NCBI GenBank assembly: GCA_030599585.1
Contig: JAUVNS010000022.1
Coordinates: 1-59,105, forward strand
Reading direction: 5' to 3'
Origin: Promethearchaeota archaeon
Lineage (GTDB): Archaea > Asgardarchaeota > Lokiarchaeia > Sigyniarchaeales > SOKP01
DNA: 59,105 nt
Positions 4,112 through 47,971 of this stretch are shown here, in pieces. The position numbers were made by a program, and so were the translations under genes. Under the pieces are notes generated by a model. The model did not search any database. It was not told the DNA's origin and was given only the letters and a program-made list of their open reading frames with translations. Positions within the stretch are counted from its first letter, which is position 1, and every line of letters begins with the position of its first letter.

Positions 4112-4118
4112 TTAGCGC

Positions 4119-4580: not shown

Positions 4581-4659
4581 TTTCTCTTATACTCCTTCTT
4601 GCTATAGATTTCATTAATCGATTCAGGTATTTTGAGATGCCTTTTTTAAACATAGATTA

Positions 4660-5475: not shown

Positions 5476-5527
5476 ATATCAATACCAGTTTATGCTTTTC
5501 TCTATGGAATCGAATTTTTTTAACTTT

Positions 5528-5995: not shown

Positions 5996-6066
5996 TTAAG
6001 GTTTTTTTATGGACAAAATTTTTCACTTAATTCACATCCGAGACTTCTTTTACCTCTTAGATTTGT

Positions 6067-6603: not shown

Positions 6604-6609
6604 TTATTA

Positions 6610-6993: not shown

Positions 6994-7002
6994 TTTCTTC
7001 CT

Positions 7003-7434
7003 CTATAATTTTTTGATTGTTTTAAACTTATTAGAACTATTATTCAACTGTAAATACTCCAACTGGGCAATTACATTGTTTAATAATTGTACTCGATTTT
7101 CTTCACCCTCTATTGAAATCCTCATTCCAATACATTTATTCATTATAAAAAGTTTATTCATTCCAGGAGGATAATATAATATATATAAGTAAGCAGGTTG
7201 GAACTCAATATTCAATTTATTACATATTTTCGATAAAATGCGTTTTTGTTTTTTATTTAAGCGAATAAATACAATATACAACGGAGATATCTCACCCCGC
7301 CGAATCTTTCCCCCTTGACACGATTCTCCTGTTTCATACCCATTTTCGTTAAACCACTTTATGTGATCGTAAATTTGCTCATCAATTTCAGTGTCGTGCC
7401 TATTAATATATAACATTTTATGAATATGTCTCAT
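7003..7434 (-). CDS. Hypothetical protein, Tyw3 N-terminal-like motif
   Basis: IDEQIYDHIKWFNENGYETGESCQG matches the D-x-x-I...N-x-x-G-x-x-T-x-x-SC-x-G pattern. Confidence 0.4.
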   Translation of the reverse strand: MRHIHKMLYINRHDTEIDEQIYDHIKWFNENGYETGESCQGGKIRRGEISPLYIVFIRLNKKQKRILSKICNKLNIEFQPAYLYILYYPPGMNKLFIMNKCIGMRISIEGEENRVQLLNNVIAQLEYLQLNNSSNKFKTIKKL

Positions 7435-7485
7435 GACTTTTTGCCCCCCGTTTGGATTTTTTTTATATCCGGAGGTTCTATCACT

Positions 7486-7698
7486 TTAATTTGCTCCTTT
7501 TCTCATTATTCGATTTACCAAGTTTTTAATTTCCTTTACCAAATTTTTTTTAACCGGACCTATTTTTACTAAAGCGTTTGCGAAGGACACCACAAAAAAT
7601 AATGCCCATAAAATCAGTAAGATCGTCGTCGATAAAACTAACACAGAGAACGCTAAAAAACCTCGATTTTCTATTTTTTCTCTCTTTCTTTTATCCAT
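7486..7698 (-). CDS. Small single-pass membrane protein
   Basis: Hydrophobic stretch FLAFSVLVLSTTILLILWALFFVVSF flanked by basic residues. Confidence 0.5.
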   Translation of the reverse strand: MDKRKREKIENRGFLAFSVLVLSTTILLILWALFFVVSFANALVKIGPVKKNLVKEIKNLVNRIMRKGAN

Positions 7699-7722
7699 TA
7701 TTTCATGACTTTATACAATTTT

Positions 7723-8316
7723 CTATATTTGATCGATTGATTTAGCTATTTTTGAAAAGTCCTTATACTTGTCAAGGAATTCAAATTCACCCTTTTTAAT
7801 TTGGCCTACAATGTCTTTTATAGACCATTTCATTATATCTTCCATAAATTCTTCAGGGGTCGAATGGATTTCATTGCATAAATCCTCAACTGCTTTTGAG
7901 ATCGATGTAGGAATTTCTGCATTAATTATACTTTTTTTCTCAGATAATTCGTGAGGAATATCAGGTGGTTGTATTCCAGCCAATTTTGAAACATCGTAAT
8001 ATCTACCAATAAGATCAAATTTATTGGATTTTATATCCTCTCTAATATCGTACAAATCGTAACTAATAGTATTTATAACAAATTCGTTTAATTCTATAAA
8101 AAAAGATTCGCAAAATACCCGAATTTTTCTTATGATCTCTTTACTAAAGCGTAATGAAAATCTCATTTTATTTTCTGGTAAGATTAAAACATTCGAATTT
8201 TCAATTTCATTTTGCTCGATCATCTGAATTTGCTCCTTAGTGATTCTTTTTAAATCTATAATGCCGTTTTCTTGAGTTGCTAACTTGAATTTTAATTTTA
8301 ATTTCCGTGAATCCAT
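7723..8316 (-). CDS. Protein with two RHH-like repeats
   Basis: RFSLRFSKEII...NEFVINTI...DIRED.K...FDLI..Y.DVSKLA repeated as INAEIPTSI...EEFMEDIM...DIVGQ.K...FEFL..Y.DFSKIA. Confidence 0.45.
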   Translation of the reverse strand: MDSRKLKLKFKLATQENGIIDLKRITKEQIQMIEQNEIENSNVLILPENKMRFSLRFSKEIIRKIRVFCESFFIELNEFVINTISYDLYDIREDIKSNKFDLIGRYYDVSKLAGIQPPDIPHELSEKKSIINAEIPTSISKAVEDLCNEIHSTPEEFMEDIMKWSIKDIVGQIKKGEFEFLDKYKDFSKIAKSIDQI

Positions 8317-8589
8317 TTAGTTCGTAAACCTTATCTGTTATATTATCATACCACGCTTCATAATCGTTAGTGTTCTTTTTGTCTTCTATTTTTCCATTAA
8401 TTCTTAATTCGCAAATATACTGTGTATTTGTATCGGAGAATGTAGCCTTTTGATTAAACATTATATTGAATTTTTGATTATATTTTTATAAGCTAAAAGG
8501 ACTTTAGGAACTTATTTTGTCTAAATTCGATTAATATTATTTTACTTTTTATTATTTTATGATAATATTACTATTAATAATAATATCAT

Positions 8590-8618
8590 ATAGTAATAAT
8601 ATTTGTTATTATTACTAT
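8590..8618. promoter_or_regulatory. 12-bp inverted repeat (candidate operator) in divergent promoter
   Basis: atagtaataata-tttgt-tattattactat, perfect IR upstream of the RHH gene at 8691; very AT-rich context lowers significance. Confidence 0.4.
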
Positions 8619-8690
8619 TAGTTAATATGAAAATTTAAATGTTATTATGAGGTAATAATATATAATATCCAAACAAAAAATAAGGATAAG

Positions 8691-8918
8691 GTGGTTAAAG
8701 TACCAGGATTTTCTGTGTCGTTAAGTAAAGAGTTGTATAGAAAATTACTTAAATTAGAAGATGAAGAAGGAAAAACAACTTCAGGAATAATAAGCGAGAT
8801 TTTAGAAATATTTCTTAATAATAAAGTCTTCCAAAAACTGCATGAAATGAAAATAGAAAAAGATATTGATTTCGCAAAGAATCTTCAAGTAATTTTTCAA
8901 AGGGGTTTAGAAGAATAA
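8691..8918 (+). CDS. Ribbon-helix-helix transcription regulator
   Basis: FSVSLSKELYRKLLKL...TTSGIISEILE. Confidence 0.6.
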   Translation: MVKVPGFSVSLSKELYRKLLKLEDEEGKTTSGIISEILEIFLNNKVFQKLHEMKIEKDIDFAKNLQVIFQRGLEE

Positions 8919-8940
8919 TCTCCTTTTAATCTTTAATACT

Positions 8941-10635
8941 TTAATGTAAATTAGGAAATATCTCTTTACTGGGGTATAATTGTCTAGCTTTTCTAATCGT
9001 ATTGAGCGCAGCTTCACGATTCTTCATACTAAGTAAAATTCCTGCTTTGGTTTCATAAAGTTCAAAGAGTTCTAATTTTTTTGGATTTTTGTTAACAGTT
9101 CTTTCTATTACCTTCAAAGCTGATTTATACCTTTGTAAATCATATGCTAAACAATTTGCTTTTCTTATATAATATCTAATATTCTGAGGGTCCTTTTTTA
9201 TAGCTAAATTAAAAACTTCTAATGCTTCTTCATATTGGTTTAAAGATAATAAAACACTTGCTAGGTCAGAATAATAAATTCCTTCTTGGGGTTCTAATTC
9301 AATGGCTCTATTTATTGCGTTTAAAGCCTCCTCGTATTTATTCTGCCAACTTAAAAAAAAAGCATAATCTGAATAAAAATTCGCTTTTTGAGGATCTAAG
9401 GTAATAGCTTTACATATTGCTTCTACTGCGCCATTATAGTCGCCTGTAATATGTAAAATATGTGCTTTCAGACAATAATTATAAGAATTATATCCATCGC
9501 AATCCATAGCTTTTTGTATAAATTCAGTAGTATATTTAATATTTTCCCGATATTCTAAAGGTAATAGGGCATTATATGCTTCCTCGATATGGAATAAAGT
9601 TCTTTTTTGCAAATAATCCAATCTTTCAAAATCGAAAATTTCAGATGTTAAAATTAAAGTAGGAATTTCGTACAAGTCAAAGCTCTTTATAAACGCTTTC
9701 CTTTTAAGATTCTTTAAAAGCGTTAATAAATAATATTTTACTGTGTCGTATAAAGAGACCTCAAGAGTTTTATGAAAAAGGTTATACTTATTAATAAGTA
9801 CAATTATTACCGCTTCACATATCTCATTAAAAATGATTTCCTGGAATTTATTATTGTAAATATATTGTTCATAATAATAATCTCTTAGTATTGATTGAAT
9901 AGTTATTTCGAAAATGCAACCATATTGGTCACTAGACCTAAAATATAGATTGATCCCCCTCTTTGCTAACTTTAATTTGTAGAATGATATCGTAGTAATT
10001 TTTTTCATTCGAAGCTCGCGTAGAAACCATTTTAATTCATCTTTGGTTAAAATGTCGTTACAATATTTATCAATAAAATCATCAATTGAAATGTTCACGC
10101 TCCCAGAATAATCATAAAATCTAGTATGGTTTAAAGTTAGATATAAGACTGCGATATCAAACTTTTCTTCAGAAAAGAGGCTTAATTTATCCCGATTTAT
10201 TTCATTTTTAAGCTTGAGAAACTCAATCATTATATCTTTATTTTCTATTTCACATTTATTAAGAAACTGAGTATCTAGAGCAACCGTTTTAGATGTAGTT
10301 TTTCGTTCCAAATTTAAGATAGTTTTTACATCTAGATTGTAGGATTTTAATCTTTTAACTAATTCTTTTACCCCTAAATTAGTGATTGTATAAATACTAT
10401 GCTTTTTTTCCCGAGAAACGCTTATATAATTATTACTTTTTAATTTTTTAGCCCATTTATGAAATGTGTTTTTATTCATTCTGTTTTTTATACCCTTCTC
10501 TTTATTATTTATAAATTCCTCACGTTTCATTGGACCATAAACTCCTAAAACATAAAGGATGATATCTTCGTATTGGTCTCTTTCCCAGAGTAAATTTGGG
10601 ATTTTTTGAGGGATAAAATTAATTTTTGTCATCAA
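8941..10635 (-). CDS. Winged-helix + TPR-repeat protein
   Basis: N-term wHTH-like (KKLKSNNYISV...YTITNLG); C-term TPRs (YNGAVEAICKAITLDPQ, YEEALNAINRAIELEPQ, YEEALEVFNLAIKKDPQ). Confidence 0.8.
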   Translation of the reverse strand: MMTKINFIPQKIPNLLWERDQYEDIILYVLGVYGPMKREEFINNKEKGIKNRMNKNTFHKWAKKLKSNNYISVSREKKHSIYTITNLGVKELVKRLKSYNLDVKTILNLERKTTSKTVALDTQFLNKCEIENKDIMIEFLKLKNEINRDKLSLFSEEKFDIAVLYLTLNHTRFYDYSGSVNISIDDFIDKYCNDILTKDELKWFLRELRMKKITTISFYKLKLAKRGINLYFRSSDQYGCIFEITIQSILRDYYYEQYIYNNKFQEIIFNEICEAVIIVLINKYNLFHKTLEVSLYDTVKYYLLTLLKNLKRKAFIKSFDLYEIPTLILTSEIFDFERLDYLQKRTLFHIEEAYNALLPLEYRENIKYTTEFIQKAMDCDGYNSYNYCLKAHILHITGDYNGAVEAICKAITLDPQKANFYSDYAFFLSWQNKYEEALNAINRAIELEPQEGIYYSDLASVLLSLNQYEEALEVFNLAIKKDPQNIRYYIRKANCLAYDLQRYKSALKVIERTVNKNPKKLELFELYETKAGILLSMKNREAALNTIRKARQLYPSKEIFPNLH

Positions 10636-11049
10636 TTTAAAACTGATTCTCTTTAATTTAAAATTATTGCATTAGGACATTTACTAGGACAAAATCATTA
10701 AAAATAATAAAAATAAAATGTAATTCAATAACGAAATTAAGATAATAAAAAATCCAGATTTCAGTTCTGACAAGATTCAAATTTGAAGATGTGAAGGAAA
10801 AATCACGATCTTTTAAAGAATAAATATTGATACGTACAAAAACGAGAATTGTAAAAAAGTGACTGGGGAGAATAAGAAGAAGATAAATCACTGGCTTCGA
10901 TGTCAAAATTTAAATCCAGTTAAATAGTAGAAGAAGGAAGGATCAGGAATAGATGTATGAATATTTAAGTCTACTATCCTCACAGCAGACATCAAGAACG
11001 AGACATTCAATATAAAAGGCAGGTAATAATCTAAAAGGAGGGGTTATTA

Positions 11050-11532
11050 TTGTTAAACTATGAAAATGAAATTACGGCTTCTAAATGTCCAAAATGTGAT
11101 ACCGCATATATATCCAAGGGTGGAAGCGTGTCCGTGAATAAAGGTAAATGTACGATATGTGGTAACCCACTTCACGAAAATGACATTCAAGCAATAGAGA
11201 ATCACATAAAAATTTTACAACATCTAAAGGAATCTCCTGGATTTAAATCACAGAATAAACATACAACATTTAAAAGTCATTTAAAACCAGAAGCTAGAAT
11301 TATACTTAATAATTTGAATAATTATTTAATAAGAGGCCATCATCTAGAACCATCAATCTGCAAATTTTGTAATACGAGTATAGCTCAACAATTTCTTCCA
11401 TTAATATTATGGAATAAAGACCAAATACATTTTATAGAGTTTCATGTCCAATGTATAATAAAAAAAGAAAAATTAAAGGAATTTAATAATTTCGTTGGTG
11501 ATTTTGATTATATTTATGAAATTGATGAGTAG
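11050..11532 (+). CDS. Zn-binding protein (Zn ribbon plus CxxC...HxxC domain)
   Basis: CPKC, CTIC, CKFC...HVQC; SD-like aggaggg upstream. Confidence 0.6.
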   Translation: MLNYENEITASKCPKCDTAYISKGGSVSVNKGKCTICGNPLHENDIQAIENHIKILQHLKESPGFKSQNKHTTFKSHLKPEARIILNNLNNYLIRGHHLEPSICKFCNTSIAQQFLPLILWNKDQIHFIEFHVQCIIKKEKLKEFNNFVGDFDYIYEIDE

Positions 11533-11661
11533 ACTCATAGAAGTTGAGGTATCCGGTCATTAAAATTCATGTCTTAAATGCATTTATGTTCATAATAACT
11601 ACGAGAGGATATTTATCTCTTAATAATAAATTATAGAATCAACAATTAACTAAGATTTACT

Positions 11662-12228
11662 ATGAAAATTTTATGTAAAAAATGTGGGAAGATTCAAGAA
11701 TACTATCCTAAATTAAAAAATAATAAGATTGCCAAGTCACCAGGAACCAAATGTAACTCTTGTGGGAATCACATCAGAGTTAGTAAAAAACAAATAAAAT
11801 TAGAATTATTGGAAATTAGGGAAAAGTTTATAATATTTCAGACCGATTTAAGTAAACTTTCTAATAACGATTTCTATGGCGACGCCATAGAGAATTATTT
11901 AGGAATATTGAATTTAGATATCTTAAATTTAGGAATAGTAGTTGTAGATACTGGAAAATTTAAAATTTTTCTTGAAAAGTTCAAAATTAATAATAAAGTT
12001 ATAGTATATGGTGAAATTAAGATTAAAATGTTTAAAAACTTAAGTCACATTGAAATTTATAATAGTAAAATTAATTTTCTTTTTAAAAAACCACAATCTT
12101 ATGAAAATTTAATACATTATTTGGAAGTCTGTAAAATACTTTCAAATGAGATTCAAGAAAATTTGATTAATTATTACCGGATTCCACTTTTAGTCCAACC
12201 TTTAGATATATGTTATTACAATCCATAA
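11662..12228 (+). CDS. Zn-ribbon protein
   Basis: CKKC...CNSC at N-terminus. Confidence 0.55.
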   Translation: MKILCKKCGKIQEYYPKLKNNKIAKSPGTKCNSCGNHIRVSKKQIKLELLEIREKFIIFQTDLSKLSNNDFYGDAIENYLGILNLDILNLGIVVVDTGKFKIFLEKFKINNKVIVYGEIKIKMFKNLSHIEIYNSKINFLFKKPQSYENLIHYLEVCKILSNEIQENLINYYRIPLLVQPLDICYYNP

Positions 12229-12546
12229 TTCAATTGTGATTTACGGTTAAATTGAATCATTTTCCAAATTTTTGCGAAGAAGAAAAACATAAGCAAAATC
12301 AGATGAATTCAATTAAGAAGTCTAAAAATGAGAATGAAAGACGAGTGAGAAAAAAAGTTTTTAGAGAAACTCTCGTTCAGGCTCAACCCTCTGAAAATCA
12401 GTTATGGAATAGGTTTAAACATTTCAGAGAAGTCAAGATTAATAGGTCTAAATTTGTTCGGATTTTAAAGTTGAGAAGATAAACATTACATAAACGATTA
12501 AAAGTTTAAAATGTTCAAGTGATTTCCCCCATATATAATAAGGAGA

Positions 12547-13113
12547 TTAATCGTCTGCAAATAAACCTAATGTTCTGCCTCCTTTATAGTGTCTAATGTG
12601 TTTAATAGAATTTTGCTCGAGAAACCCTAATAAAAGATCTCTCTTTTCTTGGTTTAAATTAAAAAGTTTAATAGTTATAAGCTCTTTCCTAATTATTCCC
12701 TTTATAAGTCTTCGTGAATATAGATCCTGCCATTCATCGCCTTTAGGACCATCACTCAAATAGTCGTGCAGTTCCAGATCTAAAAGAATACGATATAAAG
12801 CCCATGTATCAGATCCAATATTACGGTCTTCTCTTATCTCTTTAATTTTGTTTTGGATTTCGTTATCAGTTAGTTTTTTATTTTTTTTTATGATTTCATA
12901 AAAATAATCCTTAAAATACTCGGTAAACTTCCAATTCTCCTCTTCTTCATCTTCAAAGTTTACTCCCAACTCTATACCTATAATATACAAGAGAAATTCA
13001 TATTTAATATCCCTTCCAATAGCTTCCTTTCTCTCCTTAATTAGTTGTTCTAATTCTTCTTGGGTTAATTCAGTTTCTGCTATAATCTTTTCCAAATAAA
13101 AAGTGGCTTCCAT
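12547..13113 (-). CDS. Protein with two repeats resembling the N-terminal helical domain of archaeal RPA
   Basis: LTQEELEQLIKERKEAIG...LLYIIGIELGV and LTDNEIQNKIKEIRED...ALYRILLDLEL. Confidence 0.45.
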   Translation of the reverse strand: MEATFYLEKIIAETELTQEELEQLIKERKEAIGRDIKYEFLLYIIGIELGVNFEDEEEENWKFTEYFKDYFYEIIKKNKKLTDNEIQNKIKEIREDRNIGSDTWALYRILLDLELHDYLSDGPKGDEWQDLYSRRLIKGIIRKELITIKLFNLNQEKRDLLLGFLEQNSIKHIRHYKGGRTLGLFADD

Positions 13114-13711
13114 TTTAAATCATACATTCATTTTTAATGATTTAACTCATTATTAAAAAGAAATTATATAAATACCGAAATTTTAGATAATAGTTGACTG
13201 AAACTAATTATGAAATATCTAAATGATATTTTGCTATAATAATAGGCTCTGTTATTCATACAATAATAGCCAATTGGTATAGTTCAGTCGTCAATTAATG
13301 TTTTATCAGCGAATAAAACAAGCTAAAATTACTGATATATATGATTCAAGGCTTAATTCTATAGGCGTGAATCCCTCATCTTTTAGTAACTACTTAAAAA
13401 AATGGCGTAGAAAGAATCTGGCCAATATCAAAGAAAGCTAAAATTCAAGTAGTTTAAAAATGAGCTTTATAAATATAAAGTGCTACTCATGAGTCATCTA
13501 ATTTTAAAGGAGTAATTTGTCATCAGAATACCCAATAATAAGGGAGTTTTTAACTCCCATTTACTCCTTACCTTTCTTCTCTTGAAAATATAGCACTTTA
13601 AAAATATAGTTAAAAATTAAAAGATAAGGAAGTTTTTTCCCCTTGAACTACATACTCATACAATGTCCTCAAGGAGTTTTCTTCCTTCTTGGTCTCCATC
13701 CATCATTTGGG

Positions 13712-13749
13712 GGCTTCAAGGGGTTTTTTATATTTTTCCCCTTGAAGCC
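13712..13749. repeat. Perfect 12-bp GC-rich inverted repeat in a long intergenic region
   Basis: ggcttcaagggg-N14-ccccttgaagcc; a further ccccttgaa copy at 13639-13647. Confidence 0.8.
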
Positions 13750-14016
13750 TTTGAACATTTATTTCTCTTCCTTTATCTATATTTTAGAACTTTTTAAATT
13801 GGTTAGCTTTTAAAACATAGTAGCCTTCTGGAAATGTCTTTTTTCATTTTCTCTAACATGTCAAACCGACTATTTGTTGGTATTGACAGGCTGATTATCA
13901 TATAATTGAATACTATTTAATACCCTACAACCACGAAGTTTATAAAGGTTAAAAGGCTAAACTAATAATAAGTTTATAGACAGCTCTGTGTGCATAGAAC
14001 ACCATTTTGAACTAAA

Positions 14017-14232
14017 GTGGAAGTGAATCTGTTGGCTAAGAAAAACCAAGATAACAGAAAAGATCCGAATAAATACGACCTTAAAATACCTTATGAATTA
14101 TATAAAGTTGTTAAAAAATATATAGAAAACAATAAAGAATTAGGCTATTCCAGCGTAAGCCAATATCTTAATGAACTTATTAGATTGGAGATAAAAAGGA
14201 TATTAAAAGACGAAAAAGAGCGAAAGGGATAG
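14017..14232 (+). CDS. Ribbon-helix-helix protein
   Basis: YDLKIPYELYKVVKKYIE...GYSSVSQYLNELIR. Confidence 0.65.
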   Translation: MEVNLLAKKNQDNRKDPNKYDLKIPYELYKVVKKYIENNKELGYSSVSQYLNELIRLEIKRILKDEKERKG

Positions 14233-14366
14233 TTCACCTCCTTAGCATTTTTGAAAAATTAGTATTCAAAGAGAATGAAATTTTGAGTTAAATATTACTT
14301 TTATTGCTATTTAAAACCCTTCAAAGAAGGTAAATTAAAAACAACCTTCAGCCCTTCTATAATTAT

Positions 14367-15044
14367 TCAACCCATAATATAATCAATATGACTGTAAAAT
14401 GCTTTAAAAAAACCAACTATAATATCCTGTGCATCTTCTAATTCGTTATCTTTTTTTAGTTTCGACGCCTCATCTATTAAAAGATAAATGAATTCTAAAT
14501 CCTCAAAAGTTAACCCAGAATACTCAACACCGAATAAAACCCAATCGTAAAAATAATCTTTAAAGCTATTATCTAAAGATTTAAATTCTTTTTCTTGTAG
14601 GGGGGCTAAATCATCCATGAAAACTTGTTCGCCGTCGTGAAGTTTATTTATGAGATCTAGTTGAAAATATAATAGATATTTCTCATTTTTAGTACAGCTA
14701 ATACCTTCCTTTTTATTCAAAATCCTTCTATTATAATCTTCTAAGGTAATCGTAAGCCTATGGTTATTATAAACCATATTAAATAGATGTATGTTTATAT
14801 CTTTCCAAGAAAAATTATTTTTATATATCTTCCTCTCTATGGGCGTTATTATCTTAATGATTGTATATATTTTCTCGACTAATTTCGGTATCTCCTTTTC
14901 ACATTTTGTTCTTAGGCTCTGTCTGAATAAATTCCGATAATCGACGATTATTGTCTCAAGAGTGATTATGAATTTATTGAAGTCGTCAATTTTAAACACA
15001 GGGATGGGAATTTTCTCCGCCCCCTGATTATCATATATAGTCAT
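14367..15044 (-). CDS. Hypothetical protein
   Basis: 225-aa ORF with no recognised motif. Confidence 0.6.
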   Translation of the reverse strand: MTIYDNQGAEKIPIPVFKIDDFNKFIITLETIIVDYRNLFRQSLRTKCEKEIPKLVEKIYTIIKIITPIERKIYKNNFSWKDINIHLFNMVYNNHRLTITLEDYNRRILNKKEGISCTKNEKYLLYFQLDLINKLHDGEQVFMDDLAPLQEKEFKSLDNSFKDYFYDWVLFGVEYSGLTFEDLEFIYLLIDEASKLKKDNELEDAQDIIVGFFKAFYSHIDYIMG

Positions 15045-15134
15045 GTTTTTATCCTCTAATTCTGTTTATATACTTCTTCTATATCTTCACGACGCTTATA
15101 CTTCTTATTCGTCATTTCTTGCATTAGATTTTAT

Positions 15135-15290
15135 TTATGTGGTAATTTCTCTTCTAATTGTTATTAACGACCCACATTCGGGGCATTCTACTATTCCCTC
15201 TTCTATATCGCCCTCAACTTTAGTCTTTTTAAAAAGTTTCATTATATCCTCGGGAAAGAATATAAATCCACACACACACTTATAAAGCAT
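15135..15290 (-). CDS. Small Zn-ribbon protein, 51 aa, absent from ORF track
   Basis: Hand translation MLYKCVCGFIFFPEDIMKLFKKTKVEGDIEEGIVECPECGSLITIRREITT. Confidence 0.55.
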   Translation of the reverse strand: MLYKCVCGFIFFPEDIMKLFKKTKVEGDIEEGIVECPECGSLITIRREITT

Positions 15291-15367
15291 CTTTTTTTCT
15301 TCACCTTCGCTAATCTTTTTTCACCTCGTTTTTGTCTATTATTTTTTTTCTAAAATGTAATTAAAAA

Positions 15368-15586
15368 TTAATTATTACAGACCATCATTTTTTTCAAAGC
15401 CTCTCTCTTTAAATTATCAATACTTTTGGATACATTCTTAAAGTATTGCTTGAAAACTAAGTCATCTGGGAAAATTTCAAGGAGTTTCTTATAATTGTTC
15501 CTAATTCGTTTTAAGGTGTTCAATTCATCTAAAGCACTCATTAGATCACCCTCGAAATTAATTTTAGAATAGAGAAACACCAACAC
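15368..15586 (-). CDS. Small helical protein, probable paralog of 48569..48841 N-terminus
   Basis: LKRIRNNYKKLLEIFPDDLVFKQY vs LNRTVNRFRKLAKSYPNDSFYSEY; likely start is the internal Met (MSALDE). Confidence 0.5.
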   Translation of the reverse strand: MLVFLYSKINFEGDLMSALDELNTLKRIRNNYKKLLEIFPDDLVFKQYFKNVSKSIDNLKREALKKMMVCNN

Positions 15587-15822
15587 ACAAAAATGTAGTA
15601 ATATAGAATATCAAAGGACGAAATGAAATTAGTTCTAATAAGGTATATATTCTCTATCAAAATGAAAAAATTAGTAGAAAATGGTGTTTCCCCATTTCTC
15701 CAATAATTCGTTAGGGAGATATCCCGTTCAAATAATCTATGTTTCATATCTTTTTAGCCTCATTAAAACACACTTTTTTTTGAAGATATTTTCATTTTTA
15801 GCGATTTTATATTCTTTTTTTG

Positions 15823-16179
15823 CTATATTTTTAGGGTTCTGAGCTTTCGACTCATAGTTTTCCTATTTAAAATCCTTTCAAAATCATTATGGGAATGTTC
15901 TAACTGAGCAAAAAACCCATCAAGTTTGTCGAAATTATTGAAGAAAAAAGTTTCACCATTAACAATTATATCAACACCCTTTGGGTCAAATTTAATAGTA
16001 GCATAGATTCCACCATTACATTTATCGTGTCGAATAAAAGTCAGGAAATTAGAGTTCTTCTTAGCCCAGAAATTGTTTTGCAATAAATAACTTCGATACA
16101 TGCTTCCGTTTTTCATAATTTTAGCCTTTTTATTTAAGAAAATTTTTATATTTTGATGATTGGAGTAAGAGAACGCCAA
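15823..16179 (-). CDS. Hypothetical protein
   Basis: 118-aa ORF. Confidence 0.5.
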   Translation of the reverse strand: MAFSYSNHQNIKIFLNKKAKIMKNGSMYRSYLLQNNFWAKKNSNFLTFIRHDKCNGGIYATIKFDPKGVDIIVNGETFFFNNFDKLDGFFAQLEHSHNDFERILNRKTMSRKLRTLKI

Positions 16180-16536
16180 TAGACAAAAATCTGTAAGGAT
16201 TCGATATTTTTAATAAGAATAAGATAATAAATTTCGAAATGGCAAACAATGGCGATATTATATCGAACACAACTGAGGTATTAGAGAGATGGGTTCTCTT
16301 ATTTCTCCCGCTATTCATTTTTTTTCACACTGCCTTGAAATATTTAAATATTGGGTTTAATCCTAAAGGTTAAGAGAATTTCCCCCGGAACACATATTGA
16401 AATACTGTAAAAGTATATGGATTATGTTTATAGAAGTTAAGTAAAAGAATTTGCTTTAAGAATTCATATACCATTTCTATAAACAATCCTTCAGTGAATT
16501 TCAGGAACCCCCTTAACATACTTCATTAAACCCTCT

Positions 16537-16821
16537 TTAAAACATATTTTCCCAAATGTTCAAAAAACTTTTAAAACTTTTTGCTCTTAGATTCTCCGTT
16601 TTGAACCTATAAATTTTAATTCTTCCAAAAGTCTTTAGCTGAACTAAGTCCTGATTAATTAAAAAGTCTAAATGACGAGTCACATTAGAATGATTTAACT
16701 TTGTGAGTTTTATTATTTGAGATATTGATAGTTCTTCATTTAAAGCTAAAAACCTAAAAATCTTAACTCTTGCTCTCGACCCAAGTATTTCCTCTACAGA
16801 TTCTAGTTTAGGTGCCATCAT
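16537..16821 (-). CDS. ArsR-type winged-helix regulator coupled to cdc6
   Basis: ILGSRARVKIFRFLA...LSISQIIKLTKLNHSNVTRHLDFL...FGRIKIY; overlaps cdc6 stop codon. Confidence 0.8.
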   Translation of the reverse strand: MMAPKLESVEEILGSRARVKIFRFLALNEELSISQIIKLTKLNHSNVTRHLDFLINQDLVQLKTFGRIKIYRFKTENLRAKSFKSFLNIWENMF

Positions 16822-18032
16822 GCTGTTAATACTACTATTCCTTTTGATTCTAATACACTTGTTACATTCTGAACAAATTTATTTAAAGGTATACCTGGCA
16901 TTTTGATAAATGCCTTTCTCCCTATAATACCACTACCTTCAATATCTACTTTGAGTATGTCGTCTTTTTTACATTCTTGAACGTAATTCCATAACTGGGA
17001 ATAAGCTCTTGGTGGTATCCCAGAAAGCCTGCAAATTCTCTTATAATCTTCTATGGCTTCGGTAAGAGAAATGTCAAGGTTTCCATTTTTTTGCAATCTT
17101 ACCGTAATAGTGTAGAGCAAGAGCAGTTTGTGTTCCGCCATATGGTTAAGCATATCCTTAATGGGATAGGGAACTAAATCTTGATACGCTTGTTTGACAC
17201 AATCAAGCGTAATTATATTTAATCCCTTATTTTCAGCAATCTTCGTACTACACCATAACATGTTAAGTCCGCATCTTACATCACCAATTTCATAAACTAT
17301 CTCCGCTATAAACTGTAGAATTTCATCGCTAATCACATTCTCATTAAAGCTGATAGATGTTCTCTGCTTTAAAATATCAAATATTTGCTTTCTGGTATAC
17401 TTTTCAAATACTATAGGATGATTTAGAAAATAATGGTGTATATCCTTTACAAGATTACTTAAAAAAGCGACATTTCTAATAATTCCAATAATGTTCAATC
17501 TTTTAACTTTAGATTTAATTGTGTCGTCATTTATTCTAACCAGCGAATATAAAAGCTCTGCTCCTTTTTCATCTAACGAATCCAATTCGTCTAAGACTAA
17601 TATAAGGAAAATATTCTCCTTTTCAATAAATTCTTTAAGAAAATCTAATAAATCTTGCGGTGAAAATCCCCTTTGTGGAATTTTTTTATTCAAAGCAGAA
17701 TTAATCGTCGTTAACACTTTGTACTCTGTTCTAGATAGCTTACAATTGATATGAATATATTTCAAGTTAACTCCCCGTTCCTGAGCTGATTTTTCTAAGC
17801 CACTACAGAAATATTTTATGGTAGAGGTTTTTCCCACGCCTCGTTCCCCCTCTATAAATAGATTTACTGCTCTTTCACCACAACTTGTAATAAGAACCAT
17901 ATAATAAAGCATCAATTCTCTCAGTTCTTCGTCTCTATGTAAAATTTTAGGGTGAAAATCAACACTAAGAGATCCCTCTTCTTTAAGCAAAGGTTTCTTT
18001 TTTAACACACTATCAAATAGTTCTTCAAACAC
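16818..18032 (-). CDS. cdc6: Orc1/Cdc6 family replication initiator
   Basis: ILHRDEE, Walker A GERGVGKT, YIHINC, Walker B LVLDELD, FEKYTRKQIFDILKQR, GDVR sensor II, C-terminal wH. Confidence 0.92.
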   Translation of the reverse strand: MFEELFDSVLKKKPLLKEEGSLSVDFHPKILHRDEELRELMLYYMVLITSCGERAVNLFIEGERGVGKTSTIKYFCSGLEKSAQERGVNLKYIHINCKLSRTEYKVLTTINSALNKKIPQRGFSPQDLLDFLKEFIEKENIFLILVLDELDSLDEKGAELLYSLVRINDDTIKSKVKRLNIIGIIRNVAFLSNLVKDIHHYFLNHPIVFEKYTRKQIFDILKQRTSISFNENVISDEILQFIAEIVYEIGDVRCGLNMLWCSTKIAENKGLNIITLDCVKQAYQDLVPYPIKDMLNHMAEHKLLLLYTITVRLQKNGNLDISLTEAIEDYKRICRLSGIPPRAYSQLWNYVQECKKDDILKVDIEGSGIIGRKAFIKMPGIPLNKFVQNVTSVLESKGIVVLTA

Positions 18033-18516
18033 ACAACCTTCATATACGTCCTTTCCCAGAATATTTTCACTTATTTATTTTATTATGAATTTATAATTAA
18101 AGCGTATTTTTTTAACGATTTGAAATATGAGGGGGTGAACTACCCCCCATATTATAGTCGCCTATCTCTAAGAAATAACTAAGTCTCTGCATCTCTGAAT
18201 GACCCGAAAATCTAACCCCTGCTACTTTTAATGCTCCCAACACAATTACCTTGGTCTAATTTTTCAAGACTAAATCGTTAACAAAATAACAATGAAAATT
18301 ATTATACAACAATATAGATGTAAGAAAAACTATATAAATATTTTGAATTTTCTGTCGGATTTTATCGGATTAAACTCAAGAAATAGTGTATATATGTAAT
18401 GAAAAAGTGTGCTTTTGGGAGTAAAACAAATTAAAATTATATCTAAACTTATTAATATAATGTTTATAATAATTATTGTAACATTATAATAACGAAATGA
18501 TGAGGAATTAAATAAA

Positions 18517-18810
18517 ATGAAAGATATAATCACGCTTAAGCCAAGCCAAAGAGGTAAGGGGTTAAGGTTCGTGATTTCTCGCGCTATACGAGAAGGTTTA
18601 GATATACAGTTTAGAGATACGATAGAAGTTAATATTTACGGCATCTATAAGGAAGGGAGCATTATGATACCGATTGAGCCCCCAATACCTATGCCGTCCA
18701 TCGTCTCTAAGGTAGGCACTAATACTCAAGGAATTACTATGAAGAGGCAAATCGTAAAATTGCTCAATCTAAAAGAAGAACAAATGTTAGCAGTAGATAT
18801 TGAAAAATAA
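18517..18810 (+). CDS. Tandem AbrB/SpoVT (MraZ-like) DNA-binding protein
   Basis: Two swapped-hairpin-like units (LRFVISRAIREGLDIQFRDTIEV; QGITMKRQIVKLLNLKEEQMLAV); paralog of 43083..43388. Confidence 0.6.
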   Translation: MKDIITLKPSQRGKGLRFVISRAIREGLDIQFRDTIEVNIYGIYKEGSIMIPIEPPIPMPSIVSKVGTNTQGITMKRQIVKLLNLKEEQMLAVDIEK

Positions 18811-18818
18811 AAAGGTAT

Positions 18819-19388
18819 TTAGATCTTCTTGAAAAATATTTTGTTTATTTTATTATCGATATTTTTTAGTTTTAAGAATTTTTGATATAAGTAGGGGGGT
18901 TTATTTTCAAATTCCTCGTAATAATCGGTTAACTGTTTAATTTGTTTTGACTTTTGTCGTCCTTTAACGTATAATTCTGAGTGTTTTAATAATTCAATTA
19001 TTTCCGATTCTTCAAGTAGCAAAATCTCTAAGAATACTCCTCTTAGTTTTTTATTTTCTTCTTTTGTAAATTCTCTGTCAGGAGCTAGTCGTTTAAAAGT
19101 TTCATAAAGCACTTTCGCATCGTTTTTAAAATATTTAATCTCATTTCCTTCAATCCCAAATCTTTGTTCCAGCTCTAATAAAGCATAATCCCTTTCTACT
19201 TCGGAATCAAAAACGGCCTTCTTAAAGTTGACCCATCCATTATTTCTGGAAATTAATTCCACTATCTTTTCGTAGAAAGCGTTCTTCTCAATATAATATT
19301 GTTCTAAATCAATCTCAAATAGCACATCCATTATTTTTCTCTCCTTGTTTTTTATAATTCCTTTTCTGATTGTCTCGGATTTTGTCAA
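18819..19388 (-). CDS. Hypothetical protein
   Basis: 189-aa ORF. Confidence 0.55.
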   Translation of the reverse strand: MTKSETIRKGIIKNKERKIMDVLFEIDLEQYYIEKNAFYEKIVELISRNNGWVNFKKAVFDSEVERDYALLELEQRFGIEGNEIKYFKNDAKVLYETFKRLAPDREFTKEENKKLRGVFLEILLLEESEIIELLKHSELYVKGRQKSKQIKQLTDYYEEFENKPPYLYQKFLKLKNIDNKINKIFFKKI

Positions 19389-19551
19389 AATCTACTGCTT
19401 TTTGCTTAAGTTCATACAATTCCACTTCAATTCGAGAAGCTAATGTTTTCCCTTCCTCTGTGAGTTGTTCCTTATTAGAAAGTAAAAAGCCTAAGTACAA
19501 TTCTATAATCCTATTAATTCTTTCTAAAAACAAATCTATAAAACTAACCAT
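19315..19551 (-). CDS. Small hypothetical helical protein
   Basis: 78-aa ORF in the minus-strand run. Confidence 0.45.
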   Translation of the reverse strand: MVSFIDLFLERINRIIELYLGFLLSNKEQLTEEGKTLASRIEVELYELKQKAVDFDKIRDNQKRNYKKQGEKNNGCAI

Positions 19552-19577
19552 TCTGCAATACCCATTTATAGCTTTTT

Positions 19578-19853
19578 TTAAGTATTATTTTTAAGATCTA
19601 GTTTATCGATGTCCCAAAATACTTTTGGTCTACCTCTAAGACCAGTCTCTACGGAAAATCTTTTTACATATTCCTTTTTCTCAAGCTTTAAAAGATTATC
19701 AAAAGCAGTGGTCCAAGGAGCATCTAGTTTTTCACATATATCCTTACGAGTTAATGGACCATTTTGACCTAGAGTCTTTAACAAATTAAATTGAATTGGG
19801 GTCATAAAAAGATTAGCTGAACTTATAAGCTCAAATAAATTTTTGACAATCAT
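19578..19853 (-). CDS. Winged-helix regulator (TrmB/ArsR-like)
   Basis: GPLTRKDICEKLDAPWTTAFDNLLKLEKKEYVKR...GRPKVFW. Confidence 0.75.
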   Translation of the reverse strand: MIVKNLFELISSANLFMTPIQFNLLKTLGQNGPLTRKDICEKLDAPWTTAFDNLLKLEKKEYVKRFSVETGLRGRPKVFWDIDKLDLKNNT

Positions 19854-20200
19854 CGCTTTCTTCTTTAAACCAATTCTTATAAACTCCTAGCAAAATTATG
19901 GCTTTTTTCCTTCAATCTACCCCCTCTCTATATGAAGGATTAATATAAAATTATATGATTTAACTCCGACTTTTTTAACGCAATATTTCCGAAATAATAA
20001 AAATGACGCAAAAATTATTGGCGATTTCAATTTTGTCGGCAATACACTTGTTAATTTTCTATCAATATTGTATTGCGCCATTAATTAATGAAGTAAAAAT
20101 ACCGTCAAAATATTATTAACTACTTGATACTGGCATAATTAATATTATATTAATTGTGTGATTATATCATTAATGTTAGTAATATTGGTAGTAAATTAAA

Positions 20201-40762: not shown

Positions 40763-41704
40763 ATGACTCAAAACACTAAACAAATTTGCCCGGATTGCGG
40801 AAATGGATTTCTAATAACAGATGCTGCCCGTGGAGAAACTATATGCACCAGTTGTGGAGCTGTTATAGAACAAAAGATTATTGATTCAGGTGCGGAATGG
40901 CGTGCGTTTACTCCACAAGATTACAAAAACCGAACTCGCGTAGGATCGAAATCGAGATTAGATCAATTTGATAAGGGATTGACAACAATAATTCCGAAAG
41001 AAAATAAAGATGCTTATGGGATACCAATAAGCCCTAATATGAGAGACAATATTTATCGGTTGAGAAAATGGCATGAAAGAACAAAAAGAACAAAACCAAA
41101 AGACCGGAACTTAAATGACGCTATGAACGAATTAGACCATATTGGATCTCAACTCAATTTATCTAAAGATATCAAAGAATCTTCAGCATTTATATATAGA
41201 AAAGCACTCTCAAAAGGAATAACAAAAGGAAGATCAATAATAGGGATAATTTCGGCGTCAACTTTCATTGCGTGTAGATTAAATAGAATTCCAATTACAT
41301 TTGAATCTTTTACTGAGATAACTTCTTTAAAAAAGCGTATTATTGCAAAATTCGTAAGAGCCATCAAATACGAGCTCAATATTAGATTACCTACTTCTTC
41401 ACCAAAAGATTATATCTCTTATTACGCCTCCGAATTAAAACTCTCAGGTGAGGTCCAATCACTAGCAATAAAAATAATTGAACTAGCCCAAAAAAAGGGA
41501 ATGATGAAGGGAAAAAGTCCTTCGGGATTTGGCGCTGGGGCGTTATACAAAGCATGTCGAATACTTGGTGAAACAAGGAGTCAGAAAGAAATTTCAGTAA
41601 TATCTAATGTTACTGAAGTAACTCTGAGAAATAGGTATAAAGAGATATCATCTATTCTAAAGAATGAGGAGGGGTTATATAATAATCCTTCAAGTACGCT
41701 ATAG
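40763..41704 (+). CDS. tfb: Transcription initiation factor IIB
   Basis: CPDC...CTSCG Zn ribbon, GAEWRAF, RVG, RLRKW, two cyclin repeats, VTEVTLRNRYKE. Confidence 0.95.
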   Translation: MTQNTKQICPDCGNGFLITDAARGETICTSCGAVIEQKIIDSGAEWRAFTPQDYKNRTRVGSKSRLDQFDKGLTTIIPKENKDAYGIPISPNMRDNIYRLRKWHERTKRTKPKDRNLNDAMNELDHIGSQLNLSKDIKESSAFIYRKALSKGITKGRSIIGIISASTFIACRLNRIPITFESFTEITSLKKRIIAKFVRAIKYELNIRLPTSSPKDYISYYASELKLSGEVQSLAIKIIELAQKKGMMKGKSPSGFGAGALYKACRILGETRSQKEISVISNVTEVTLRNRYKEISSILKNEEGLYNNPSSTL

Positions 41705-44940: not shown

Positions 44941-45106
44941 ATTAATCCCAAAGCAACAGATTTCTACAAATAGTAAATAAGAAAATTCAAAAATTTATCA
45001 AAAATCCTTGATTATCTTGACCGCAATAAAGCAATCCCATAAAAATTATTTGGTAAGATGCGGATTTTATTTTTCGGATTATTATTTATCTCAATATGGG
45101 AGTTAT

Positions 45107-46156
45107 ATGAATGACATAGTTCCCAATTTTAACCTCTTGAACATAAATGAATTACCTGTTTTAGTTAGACCCTTTGACCTTGCTGATTATTTGGATATAA
45201 AATTTTCCACTCTAATAAAATACGGGAGTGTAAAAGAAGAGATAACCCTCTCTGAATCGATGTATAAGATATTTACAATAAAAAAGAAGACTGGGGGGAA
45301 ACGATATATCATAACCCCCGTTGATGGATTAAAAGAAATTCAAAAAAAGATTTATAGATTTATTCTTTTACATGTAAGAGCTTCTAGGTTTGCTACGGGA
45401 TTTATACCAACTAAATCAAATATAACAAATGCAAAAAATCATTATGGGTTTAAAGTTATTTACATCTTGGATTTAAAAAACTTTTTTCCTACAATTAAAT
45501 TTTCAAATGTATTTGAAATGTACAATTTAAAATTTGGATATTCAAAAGCCATCTCATTTTTGTTAACTAAATTAACCACTCACTTACCTCGTAGACATTC
45601 CAATGGGATGTTAAAGTTGTTGCCAAATTCTGAAAGTTTTCTTCCCCAAGGATCTCCGAGTTCTCCATACATCTCTAATCTTATTTTTAGCGAAGCAGAT
45701 TATGCTTTATATAAATTATCTCGTAAATATAACTTTGAATACTCTAGATATGCGGATGATATAACTTTTTCTAGTAAGGAACGGAAAATTGTTCCAACTG
45801 AATTTAGAGCAGGTGTAACAAAAATCATCAAGGAATCGGGATTTTATATAAATTACAAAAAGGAGCTCATCACAAGAACAAGACAGAAGATTACTGGAAT
45901 TATTGCCCACGACACACATTTAACACTTCCTCGGCAATGGATAAAGAGACTTCGCGCAGCTCTGCATGAATTAAAATATTTAGACTGTGAGAAAGAAGCG
46001 CTAGAAGTTCTCCTAAATAAGTTAAAGAACGTTCAAGGTAGGATAAACTATGCAATGGGTGTCAATAGGGGGAAATATTATCATTTTTATCTCGAATTTC
46101 AAGAGTTAAGATTATCGAAGTTTAAATATTTATTTAAAGATAAAAAAACAATATAA
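45107..46156 (+). CDS. Retron-type reverse transcriptase (likely start ATG 45107; track ORF starts at 45008)
   Basis: KKTGGKRYI, LKEIQKKI, ATGF, NAKNH (retron NAxxH), LDLKNFFPTI, LPQGSPSSP, YSRYADDITFS, QKITG (VTG-like); ggag SD before 45107. Confidence 0.9.
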   Translation: MNDIVPNFNLLNINELPVLVRPFDLADYLDIKFSTLIKYGSVKEEITLSESMYKIFTIKKKTGGKRYIITPVDGLKEIQKKIYRFILLHVRASRFATGFIPTKSNITNAKNHYGFKVIYILDLKNFFPTIKFSNVFEMYNLKFGYSKAISFLLTKLTTHLPRRHSNGMLKLLPNSESFLPQGSPSSPYISNLIFSEADYALYKLSRKYNFEYSRYADDITFSSKERKIVPTEFRAGVTKIIKESGFYINYKKELITRTRQKITGIIAHDTHLTLPRQWIKRLRAALHELKYLDCEKEALEVLLNKLKNVQGRINYAMGVNRGKYYHFYLEFQELRLSKFKYLFKDKKTI

Positions 46157-46176
46157 TATTTCAGTCACATTATCAC

Positions 46177-46404
46177 AGTTAGGTGTAAAAAGGAGATATA
46201 ACAAAACCAGGCTATCCTTTCTTTATCACAGAGAAGAGGATGTTGTGGTGTTCCGCCACACGAGGTCTTTGAGGTTTCTCGGACTTAGGATTTAGGGACT
46301 TTATAGCGTCTCTTATGATTCTAACGCTCAAGAAATTAATGAAGACATATCAAAATGGGATAATTTATTACTTATCGCTGGTATTTGTTTGATTAACCTA
46401 ACTT
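46177..46404 (+). ncRNA. Candidate retron-like msr-msd structured RNA downstream of the RT
   Basis: Terminal pairing agttaggt(46177)/acctaact(46397) and aacaaaaccag(46200)/ctggtatttgtt(46378); hairpins 46214-46241 and 46244-46260; long imperfect stem 46265-46346; found by hand pairing. Confidence 0.6.
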
Positions 46405-46437
46405 TTAGTTATTTTAATAAATAAGGAGCCGTAAAAC

Positions 46438-47475
46438 ATGTCTAATGCTTACTTTTTATCCCCTCATGAGCTCCAAGTGTTAAATTCTATTCCAAATTAT
46501 CAATCAGATTTCAAATTAGAAAAATTAGAAATCAAAAATTCAATAAAAAGCAAGCTGCAAAGATCACAAATCGATACGGTTAAATTGTTAGCTATAACTC
46601 CACTTTCTGTTATAAGAAAAACGGGCATCAAAATTGAAGATGGAATTAAAATAGTAAAAGATGCTCAAGAATTTTTGAAAACTAATTCTGAAAATAAAAT
46701 CGAGAGTAATAGTTTAACGCATTCAGGAATTTCGACCGGGAGTCAGAAATTAGACAATCTATTAAACGGCGGGATTAAACCTGGGCAATTAGTCCAAATA
46801 CATGGGGGGAGCGGAACTGGAAAAACTCAACTTGCTCACCAGGTTTGCGTAAATGCCCAACTCCCATACGATGAAGGGGGTGTGGATGGAGGCGTGTGTT
46901 TTTTGGATACTGACAATACTTTCCGTCCTGAGAGGATAGTCTCGATGGCAGATGCTTTAAATATGGATTATATAAAAGTGTTAAAAAATATTACTGTAGC
47001 TCGAGCTTATTCCAGCGAACATCAAATCTACATTATAAAGGAGGTATCTAAAATTATAAAGAAAAAAAATATTAAATTAATAGTAATTGATTCCTTAATA
47101 AGTCACTTTCGCAATGAATACCTTGGAGATTCTATTTTTTTAAAAAGACAACAACGTATAAATACCCATATGCTCGACCTGTTGAATTTATTAAAAGATT
47201 TTAATAACTTAGCAATAGTAGTTACTAATCAAGTGACCTATGATCCGAATCTCAACAAAAATAAACCTGCTGGGGGGCGTGTTGTGTTTTTTAACTCATC
47301 CATTCAAATTAAATTATTAAAAGGAAAAGGTACATCTCGAATTGCTAAAATTGTAGAAGCACCACAATTGCCTAACAATGATGCACATTTTTCCATAATG
47401 CGTGAAGGTATCCAAGACTGCAATTCACATTATCTTATAAAAAAAGGGAATTTCTATGATTTGGTTTACTTCTGA
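46438..47475 (+). CDS. radA: RadA/Rad51-family recombinase paralog (divergent)
   Basis: ISTGSQKLDNLLNGG, GGSGTGKTQLAHQVCVNAQLP, TFRPERI, ARAYSSEHQ, IVIDSLISHFRNEY, VVTNQV; N-terminal HhH-like domain. Confidence 0.88.
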   Translation: MSNAYFLSPHELQVLNSIPNYQSDFKLEKLEIKNSIKSKLQRSQIDTVKLLAITPLSVIRKTGIKIEDGIKIVKDAQEFLKTNSENKIESNSLTHSGISTGSQKLDNLLNGGIKPGQLVQIHGGSGTGKTQLAHQVCVNAQLPYDEGGVDGGVCFLDTDNTFRPERIVSMADALNMDYIKVLKNITVARAYSSEHQIYIIKEVSKIIKKKNIKLIVIDSLISHFRNEYLGDSIFLKRQQRINTHMLDLLNLLKDFNNLAIVVTNQVTYDPNLNKNKPAGGRVVFFNSSIQIKLLKGKGTSRIAKIVEAPQLPNNDAHFSIMREGIQDCNSHYLIKKGNFYDLVYF

Positions 47476-47971
47476 TTATCATTTATCTCACAAAAATATA
47501 ATTGAATATTGTAATCGTCCTTTTGAAAATGTTCAAGTAATGGATAGGACAATTGTATCAAACCTTGAGCGTAAATTAGAACCAGGTGATACATTGTATT
47601 TTCTTGGTGATTTAACATTTGATATCAACATAGCATTGCATTTTTTTAAAAATTTTAAAGATATTCAAATTCATTTTATTATAGGAAATCACGACTCAAC
47701 TAAAATTTTAGAAATTGCATATAAATTCTGTGCTACAGTATCGAACTTAAAAGTTATTAAAATAAAAAGGCAAATGATAACTCTTTGCCACTATCCTATT
47801 AGATTTGATAATGACAAACATAATTTTTGGTGTCTTCATGGTCATTCTCATGGAAAGAGTGCTCAAAAAGAGAGGGAATATGATGTAAGCGTGGATAATA
47901 ATGATTTTTTACCCTTATCATATCATGAACTTACTGAAATAATGAGGAAGTCTAGATATAATGTTATTTAA
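47456..47971 (+). CDS. Calcineurin-like metallophosphoesterase
   Basis: TSDYH, LGD, GNHD, CHYP, HGHSH; overlaps radA by 20 nt. Confidence 0.9.
   Translation: MIWFTSDYHLSHKNIIEYCNRPFENVQVMDRTIVSNLERKLEPGDTLYFLGDLTFDINIALHFFKNFKDIQIHFIIGNHDSTKILEIAYKFCATVSNLKVIKIKRQMITLCHYPIRFDNDKHNFWCLHGHSHGKSAQKEREYDVSVDNNDFLPLSYHELTEIMRKSRYNVI

Follow-up and report, generated by a model that had tools for sequence, protein, structure and literature searches.

The stretch of DNA analysed here (termed the window) comprises 59,105 nt of a Promethearchaeota archaeon and corresponds to contig C15 of a 4.85-Mb assembly, with a G+C content of 29%. Between 45.0 and 48.0 kb it contains a cassette in which a gene for a retron-clade reverse transcriptase (RT), a structured non-coding RNA (ncRNA), a gene for a RadA-family protein and a gene for a small metallophosphoesterase (MPE) follow one another, all four being intact and located on the + strand. 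This co-oriented arrangement had been proposed from the letters and their open reading frames (hereafter the sequence-only reading) and was confirmed, with the following coordinates:

45008..46156, + strand: retron-clade RT of 382 aa (Pfam RVT_1, PADLOC RT_XIII, motifs and conserved N-terminal extension)
46191..46400, + strand: msr/msd-like ncRNA 3' of the RT gene, ~210 nt (conservation, a1/a2 register, covariation and folds)
46413..46425, + strand: A/T-rich TATA-like block TTTTAATAAATAA, 13-25 nt before the radA start (conserved in alignment A2)
46438..47475, + strand: cassette-specific RadA/Rad51-family paralog of 345 aa (Pfam Rad51, alignment A6 and tree)
47456..47971, + strand: small MPE of the phrog_547 family, 171 aa (Pfam Metallophos, phrog_547, metal motifs and structure model)

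The identity of the RT gene was as originally assigned, but its start had been placed at an internal ATG (position 45107). The 33 residues upstream of this codon are kept as protein in five relatives (L031, L203, L205, L032 and L033), and L203 and L205 carry an ATG at the position homologous to 45008, the actual start therefore being the TTG at 45008. The intergenic region between RT and radA (46157-46437) measures 281 nt, and the overlap of radA with the MPE gene is exactly 20 nt (47456-47475), as had been stated. The accompanying description of radA as being led by a Shine-Dalgarno sequence appears weak, since its GGAG is not conserved in relatives of 71-75% identity; in the same alignment (A2) the A/T-rich TATA-like block is conserved and represents a possible promoter of its own for radA and the MPE gene. 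All three genes are under purifying selection, with ratios of non-synonymous to synonymous substitution (dN/dS) of 0.12-0.28 overall (RT, 0.12-0.21; RadA paralog, 0.20-0.28; MPE, 0.16-0.28).

The RT matched Pfam RVT_1 (7.5e-19), while its best PADLOC model was RT_XIII (2.4e-79), the top 25 matches consisting of retron RT models only. RT_XIII was also the top PADLOC model in every other member of the clade (3.5e-84 to 6e-107 for the relatives), lying 48-96 bits over the next model throughout, and the NCBIfam models for the St85 and Ec67 retrons matched at ~1e-52, which is under their exception-level cutoffs. The motifs NAKNH, LPQGSPSSP, YADD and ITG are present, of which NAKNH, YADD and ITG(I) are invariant or conserved in alignment A3, with ITG occupying the position of the retron motif VTG. 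By its clade as well as by its NAxxH/VTG and YxDD motifs the protein is a retron RT, and it belongs to a small archaeal clade related to the type XIII (myxobacterial-type) retron RTs. A second retron-like RT gene, broken by a TAA stop, was observed elsewhere in the same genome (G000:C21:277714-278716, - strand), with a member of the MPE family at 5.4 kb from it (C21:284085-284588), and an RT of the same clade with 39% identity is fused to an N-terminal region of ~400 aa without Pfam match in locus L037 (G045:C1, 9126-11372, - strand).

The intergenic region 46157-46437 folds with a minimum free energy of -64.6 kcal/mol (z = -2.0), and no Rfam family was matched in a scan of 43-50 kb. The anatomy of an msr-msd transcript, for which definitions and the canonical order msr-msd-RT are given in PMC7736814, was recognised in the following elements, all on the + strand:

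46191-46210: a1 arm, with its core at 46200-46210
G46211: unpaired candidate branching G, directly after a1
46213-46242: hairpin 1
46244-46260: hairpin 2, with an invariant UUC loop
about 46261-46376: variable template-like part
46378-46400: a2 arm

One or more 3' hairpins abut a2 in the predicted folds, and RNAalifold as well as single-sequence folds returned the same plan at all loci. Among relatives with RT identities of 74-76%, the initial ~100 nt of the RNA are 85-89% identical and its middle is 23-38% identical with insertions or deletions of 50-120 nt; about half of all synonymous positions in the genes on either side have changed between the same relatives (pS 0.46-0.53). The conserved core follows the pattern CAG|G|C-YAUC...GAUR-W-URUGRYG-UUC-CGYCAYA, which was also retrieved 3' of distant RTs, namely those of L034 (RT identity 44%), G019:C63 (41%), G068:C108 (38%) and L212. 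These distant copies were found with the degenerate core pattern, the covariance model R1, which was built from close relatives, being too specific for them. Among 400 Asgard genomes the pattern occurs in four, all of one family, and it does not occur in reversed controls.

The a1 and a2 arms pair in the same register at nine loci despite unrelated arm sequences, as exemplified by the arm pairs AACAAAACCAG/CUGGUAUUUGUU, UAGGAUAUUUCAG/CUGAUUUAUCCUA and AAGGACAAAUCAG/CUGAUUUGUCCUU of differing lineages, the last of which forms a perfect 13-bp duplex. Since MAFFT failed to align the a2 arms of distant RNAs, the arms were located by duplex folding with shuffled controls; at single loci the duplex energies are just modestly better than those of shuffles in this A/U-rich sequence, and the argument consists of the constant register and the covariation. 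Hairpins 1 and 2 are 98.8% paired over seven sequences and show three compensatory pairs, as compared to 20-58% pairing in slid controls. A contiguous ncRNA with a1/a2 repeats, an unpaired G, msr hairpins and an msd stem is thus present, and, together with the PADLOC models and the RT motifs, this anatomy supports the original proposal of a retron-clade RT with a retron-like RNA. Each RT of the small archaeal clade has the RNA on its downstream side. It was found in the window and at L031, L032, L207, L203, L205/G097, L034, G019:C63, G068:C108 and L212, whatever gene comes next, and because it accompanies the RT in this manner it belongs to the RT rather than to radA. A diversity-generating retroelement, or any reading in which the RNA addresses a homologous target, was rejected: no second homologous copy of the intergenic RNA exists in the 4.85-Mb assembly, and the RT scores as a retron RT.

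Linkage of the RadA-family gene and the MPE gene to this core was then assessed across relatives and was kept in every one that could be checked (L031, L032, L207, L203, L205/G097 and L206), which bears out the expectation that the association would persist. In a collection of 5.8 billion proteins the nearest RTs lie on short contigs, two of which (L031, 93% identity, and L032, 75%) run on into the same RadA; the order RNA, RadA, MPE was found in L207, RT, RNA, RadA, MPE in L203 and L205, and RNA, RadA on the short contig of L206. Genome G097, of a different genus, carries RT (76%), RadA (71%) and MPE (68%), followed by an RNase H gene. An RNase H gene lies directly after the MPE gene at two loci and is absent from this position in the window, L207 and L205:

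L067 (G097:C16) 7447-7881, - strand: RNase H
L203 10610-11047: RNase H (PF00075, 1.1e-13)

The RT-RNA-RadA-MPE unit is kept at 60-93% identity between loci, the flanks being unrelated or 30-47% identical, and the MPE is next after RadA in all four complete cassettes. Accessory genes travelling with RT and ncRNA are therefore present, with the effector role itself being a prediction. An upstream gene of 123 aa was rejected as a further conserved partner because it is kept in the 93% relative only.

The RadA-family protein matched Pfam Rad51 (2.4e-69) and NCBIfam NF003301 (288 bits, over the cutoff of 259), its score with TIGR02236 (254 bits) lying under the cutoff of 361. Compared with housekeeping Asgard RadAs (alignment A6), it keeps Walker A and B but has lost the polymerisation motif 'MGFKSA' (FxxA), which is deleted, and the 'GVG' hairpin of its HhH element; the catalytic Glu is replaced by Asp (IDTEGTFRPER to LDTDNTFRPER), 'GRG' of loop L1 has become 'G(D/E)S', so that Arg is replaced by Asp or Glu, and loop L2 is three residues shorter and lacks its conserved His. 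In a maximum-likelihood tree the five cassette RadAs form one clade outside every housekeeping RadA (support 92/95, stem length 0.86). Similarity searches retrieved four further close proteins of 67-90% identity, making five lineages with that of the window, and next the housekeeping Asgard RadAs at 43-50%. The close relatives consist of P0122-P0125 and the G097 protein only, each of which adjoins the RNA or the RT, and among 161 genomes of the class the cassette form is found in two (G000, to which the window belongs, and G097), nearly all of these genomes carrying two housekeeping forms. The protein is a cassette-specific paralog, as had been suggested, and was rejected as the housekeeping RadA recombinase on the grounds of its motif losses, its position in the tree, its TIGR02236 score and the presence of better RadAs on contigs C27 and C24 of its own genome.

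Housekeeping archaeal RadA and eukaryotic Rad51 thus share with the cassette copy the family, the ATPase core and intact Walker A and B motifs at 43-50% identity, whereas the cassette copy is a rare accessory gene on a long branch, without FxxA and HhH and with altered L1, L2 and catalytic Glu. These losses argue against a canonical strand-exchange filament and fit better with a regulatory, sensor or decoy ATPase. A conserved [CW]-G-F-[HQ]-[FY]-S peptide ('RCGFHFSD') was observed in the N-terminal extension of the RT (45008-45106), exclusively in the RadA-linked RT subclade, and it is similar to G-F-x-S-A, the polymerisation motif missing from the cassette RadA. As a lead only, the RadA paralog may accept this 'GFHFS' peptide as a docked substitute for the lost FxxA motif. 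Very long-branch RadA-like paralogs of 283-382 aa were additionally noted in the same genome (G000:C20:271069-281033 and G000:C12:52613-63832) at ~9-10 kb from short RPA-like genes (~310 aa), and these may be further copies of machinery for single-stranded DNA (ssDNA) borne by mobile elements.

The MPE matched Pfam Metallophos (2.1e-6) and, over residues 1-168, phrog_547 (4.3e-44), which places it among the phage-type phosphoesterases. Its metal-binding motifs DxH, GD, GNHD and GHSH, and with them the residues D7, H9, D52, N78, H79, H112, H130 and H132, are invariant (alignment A9). With these motifs intact, the protein is likely a nuclease or phosphodiesterase. A structure model (pLDDT 90.9) gave as best Foldseek match the uncharacterised Aquifex protein 1xm7 (TM 0.74), which was also the sole match to the PDB by sequence, and the top 50 structural matches included, besides 1xm7, LpxH, Mre11, YfcE, MJ0936, Vps29 and a PdeM-type nuclease; Dbr1 was absent from these 50. 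An identity as a Dbr1-type lariat-debranching enzyme was consequently rejected for this minimal MPE of 171 aa, and the link to Dbr1 drawn in the sequence-only reading extends to the depth of the superfamily only, the confident model matching other MPEs. A predicted complex of the RadA paralog with the MPE scored 0.26, against a mark of 0.32.

The MPE family is multicopy, with four members in the genome of the window. One of these lies within the window itself (56800-57339, - strand), is 54% identical to the cassette MPE and has as its nearest relatives the copy at C11:1990 of the same genome and the cassette MPE of L203, a kinship indicating that cassettes and stand-alone sites have exchanged MPE genes. 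At six loci a member of the family was observed directly after a gene for a protein of ~297 aa with a weak match to Polbeta-type nucleotidyltransferases, SIR2-TPR proteins often being nearby; this pair may represent a separate, defence-like two-gene module. The loci are:

L070 7088-7981
L072 3084-3965
L074 3918-4820
L075 7056-7943
L076 8559-9488
L078 7454-8353

In a sister subclade the RT-RNA core is followed by another partner. Genome G019, of the same genus as that of the window, carries RT and RNA and then a 567-aa RPA-like OB-fold protein, which is an extra copy with 44% identity to the RPA of this genome. A second lineage (L212) likewise shows RT, RNA and an RPA paralog, its RT being 70% and its RPA 50% identical to those of G019. 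Next to each of the two RT copies of G019 lies, in divergent orientation, a gene for an MPE of this family, and no MPE is present on the short contig of L212. The surroundings of the RPA-type cassettes consist of ordinary host genes, e.g. those for Ras GTPases and a Na/Ca exchanger. In two cases, then, the partner derives from a host protein that handles ssDNA, of which it is a diverged copy (RadA in one, RPA in the other), and the occurrence of RadA, RPA and other partners around the same core indicates that this core exchanges partners as retrons do, modular partner exchange around an RT-ncRNA core being a known retron pattern (PMC7736814).

Type XIII retrons (Mx162/Mx65-type, RT clade 10 of Mestre et al. 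2020, PMC7736814) are the described systems closest by RT model, and they share with the present cassette an ncRNA with an a1/a2 closing helix, msr hairpins and a 3' template hairpin; they differ from it in the position of the RNA, which here lies 3' of the RT, in the host, which here is an Asgard archaeon, and in the partners, which here are a RadA paralog with an MPE or an RPA paralog. Assignment to type XIII proper was rejected, as the neighbours of the RT gave no PADLOC or Pfam match to WH-SWIM (cluster 114) or HEAT/ARM proteins, large type-XIII-like neighbours being confined to the RTs L038 and L039, which are more distant. In type I-A retrons (Ec78/Ec83), which combine RT and multicopy single-stranded DNA (msDNA) with the ATPase PtuA and the HNH nuclease PtuB, the msDNA restrains the effector, according to PMC12819146. 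The cassette resembles this type in having an RT-ncRNA core with a gene pair for a predicted ATPase and a putative nuclease or phosphoesterase, but its ATPase is of the RecA/Rad51 fold and not ABC/SMC-like, and a metallophosphoesterase takes the place of the HNH nuclease. Type V retrons (Se72), in which the partner is a cold-shock (OB-fold) CSD protein of 67-86 aa (PMC7736814), provide a precedent for a partner binding single-stranded nucleic acid and parallel the RPA-paralog cassettes of G019 and L212, from which they are set apart by the partners found here, which are full-length diverged copies of host RPA (about 560 aa) or RadA (345 aa). A literature search found no retron type with a RadA/RecA/Rad51-family, RPA or metallophosphoesterase partner, in line with the earlier statement that no described type is known to have a RecA/Rad51-family partner.

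Considering these data together, we hold with moderate confidence that the cassette represents a retron variant undescribed so far, the accessory genes of which are paralogs of the ssDNA machinery, and which is carried in variable or mobile DNA. From known retrons we infer msDNA synthesis, contacts between the products and a role in defence. By this analogy, the unpaired G46211 beside the a1/a2 helix would provide the 2'-OH from which the RT starts synthesis, and the variable 3' part of the RNA would be reverse-transcribed to yield a short ssDNA, the template of which would be trimmed in two related cassettes by the dedicated RNase H. The resulting complex of RT, RNA and ssDNA would engage or restrain the RadA paralog and the MPE, with the RadA copy (or the RPA copy in the sister subclade) as the component that reads ssDNA or serves as a decoy, and the whole might act as a sensor and effector against viruses or mobile genetic elements, similar to retron toxin-antitoxin systems. 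A more specific version, which we put forward tentatively and consider doubtful, is that of an Asgard retron family in which the ssDNA made by the RT is read by dedicated, diverged versions of the eukaryote-like ssDNA machinery of the host (a RadA/Rad51 unable to polymerise, or an RPA); as decoys or guards, these would report viral interference with proteins of recombination or replication and would then release the phosphoesterase effector.

To our knowledge, retrons are known almost only from bacteria. Partner genes define how retrons work, and Asgard archaea, as the closest prokaryotic relatives of eukaryotes, share Rad51/RPA-type machinery with them; in each of two sister cassettes a diverged version of a host protein acting on ssDNA has been recruited immediately after the retron RNA, an arrangement suggesting that the ssDNA made by the RT and machinery of this type are directly linked in function. 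If correct, the proposed reading would establish a new type of retron, in which the order of RT and ncRNA is inverted, and would give these archaea a candidate system for antiviral defence. It would also mean that a retron and a Rad51-family protein are paired in nature, a combination relevant to retron-based editing.

Several observations weigh against this reading, and a number of them would be accommodated by the possibility that the retron core is genuine and that RadA, MPE and RNase H serve the replication or recombination of the integrated element that carries it, having stayed beside the core through common descent of the element backbone, without a functional tie. The L203 and L205 cassettes are located at the end of element-like co-directional arrays that begin with an Orc1/Cdc6 gene, so that the three genes could have such an origin. 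The MPE belongs to a phage-wide family which is multicopy in these genomes; most of its members are not near an RT, and those adjacent to an RT or RadA are not monophyletic but occupy three positions in the tree, that of L203 grouping with stand-alone copies. The tie of the MPE to the system is for this reason looser than that of RadA, and the MPE is a constant but exchangeable slot. The exchange of this slot between lineages and the conserved TATA-like block before radA also speak for the element-gene alternative. Nevertheless, conservation of the cassette far exceeds that of the remainder of the elements, a related Cdc6 element of the window lies at 3-20 kb and none is found around the cassette, the cassette RadA was never seen apart from the RNA or the RT and lacks motifs needed by a working recombinase, and the RPA-type cassettes reside among ordinary host genes, all of which makes this alternative unlikely. 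Further points against the proposed retron variant are that the altered L1 and L2 loops call into question the binding of ssDNA by this RadA, and that L034 and G068 carry no RadA, RPA or MPE within their contigs (G068 having just a HEPN-MNT pair upstream, and L034 a JAB protein and a methyltransferase on the opposite strand).

A recombination model, in which ssDNA made by the RT is debranched or trimmed by the MPE and recombined by RadA into a target (as recombineering, integration or gene conversion), would account for a module that makes ssDNA beside a RecA-family ATPase, for RNase H in two lineages and for the hypervariability of the template-like part of the RNA between lineages. It is nonetheless highly improbable, given that the RNA has no second homologous copy in its own genome, that the RadA has undergone deletion of FxxA, replacement of the L1 Arg by an acidic residue, shortening of L2 and loss of HhH, and that the MPE bears no specific likeness to Dbr1; the 'natural retron recombineering' put forward in the sequence-only reading is disfavoured on the same grounds. 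The least probable account considered is that RT and RNA act in a non-retron manner, either by priming replication of an element or by producing long or repetitive cDNA as DRT systems do, with a convergent a1/a2 fold. The location of the RNA 3' of the RT, which is the atypical side with respect to the canonical order defined in PMC7736814 and unlike classical retrons, speaks for this account and counts against the retron variant, and no Rfam or known retron ncRNA model matches the RNA; on the other hand, the RT scores best with retron models by a wide margin and the RNA displays every structural hallmark of an msr-msd transcript.

As to the genomic setting of the retron variant, the segment 42-55 kb has no counterpart at the DNA level in 41 genomes of the same genus, family-level matches to RadA, MPE and TFB excepted. 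No convincing att-like direct repeats were found around the island, and no tRNA genes in the window. On account of the Cdc6 arrays and the segment without counterparts, the cassette is taken as cargo of DNA that is variable and probably mobile. Viral contigs scanned with RT and RadA yielded no relatives, and those scanned with the MPE a single match of 35%, while a scan of metagenome contigs with the RT alignment gave two distant loci among the matches listed.

Elsewhere in the window, the region 3000-20000 (- strand; e.g. 16818-18032, 16537-16821 and 6067-6603) contains an Orc1/Cdc6-like gene, an HTH gene and small open reading frames. With 34-62% identity, these are related to the elements in which L203 and L205 carry their RT cassette, and the region probably constitutes a second, RT-less integrated element. 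A TFIIB/TFB paralog (40763-41704) is located at the border of the variable region, and a TFB gene also borders the L203 element.

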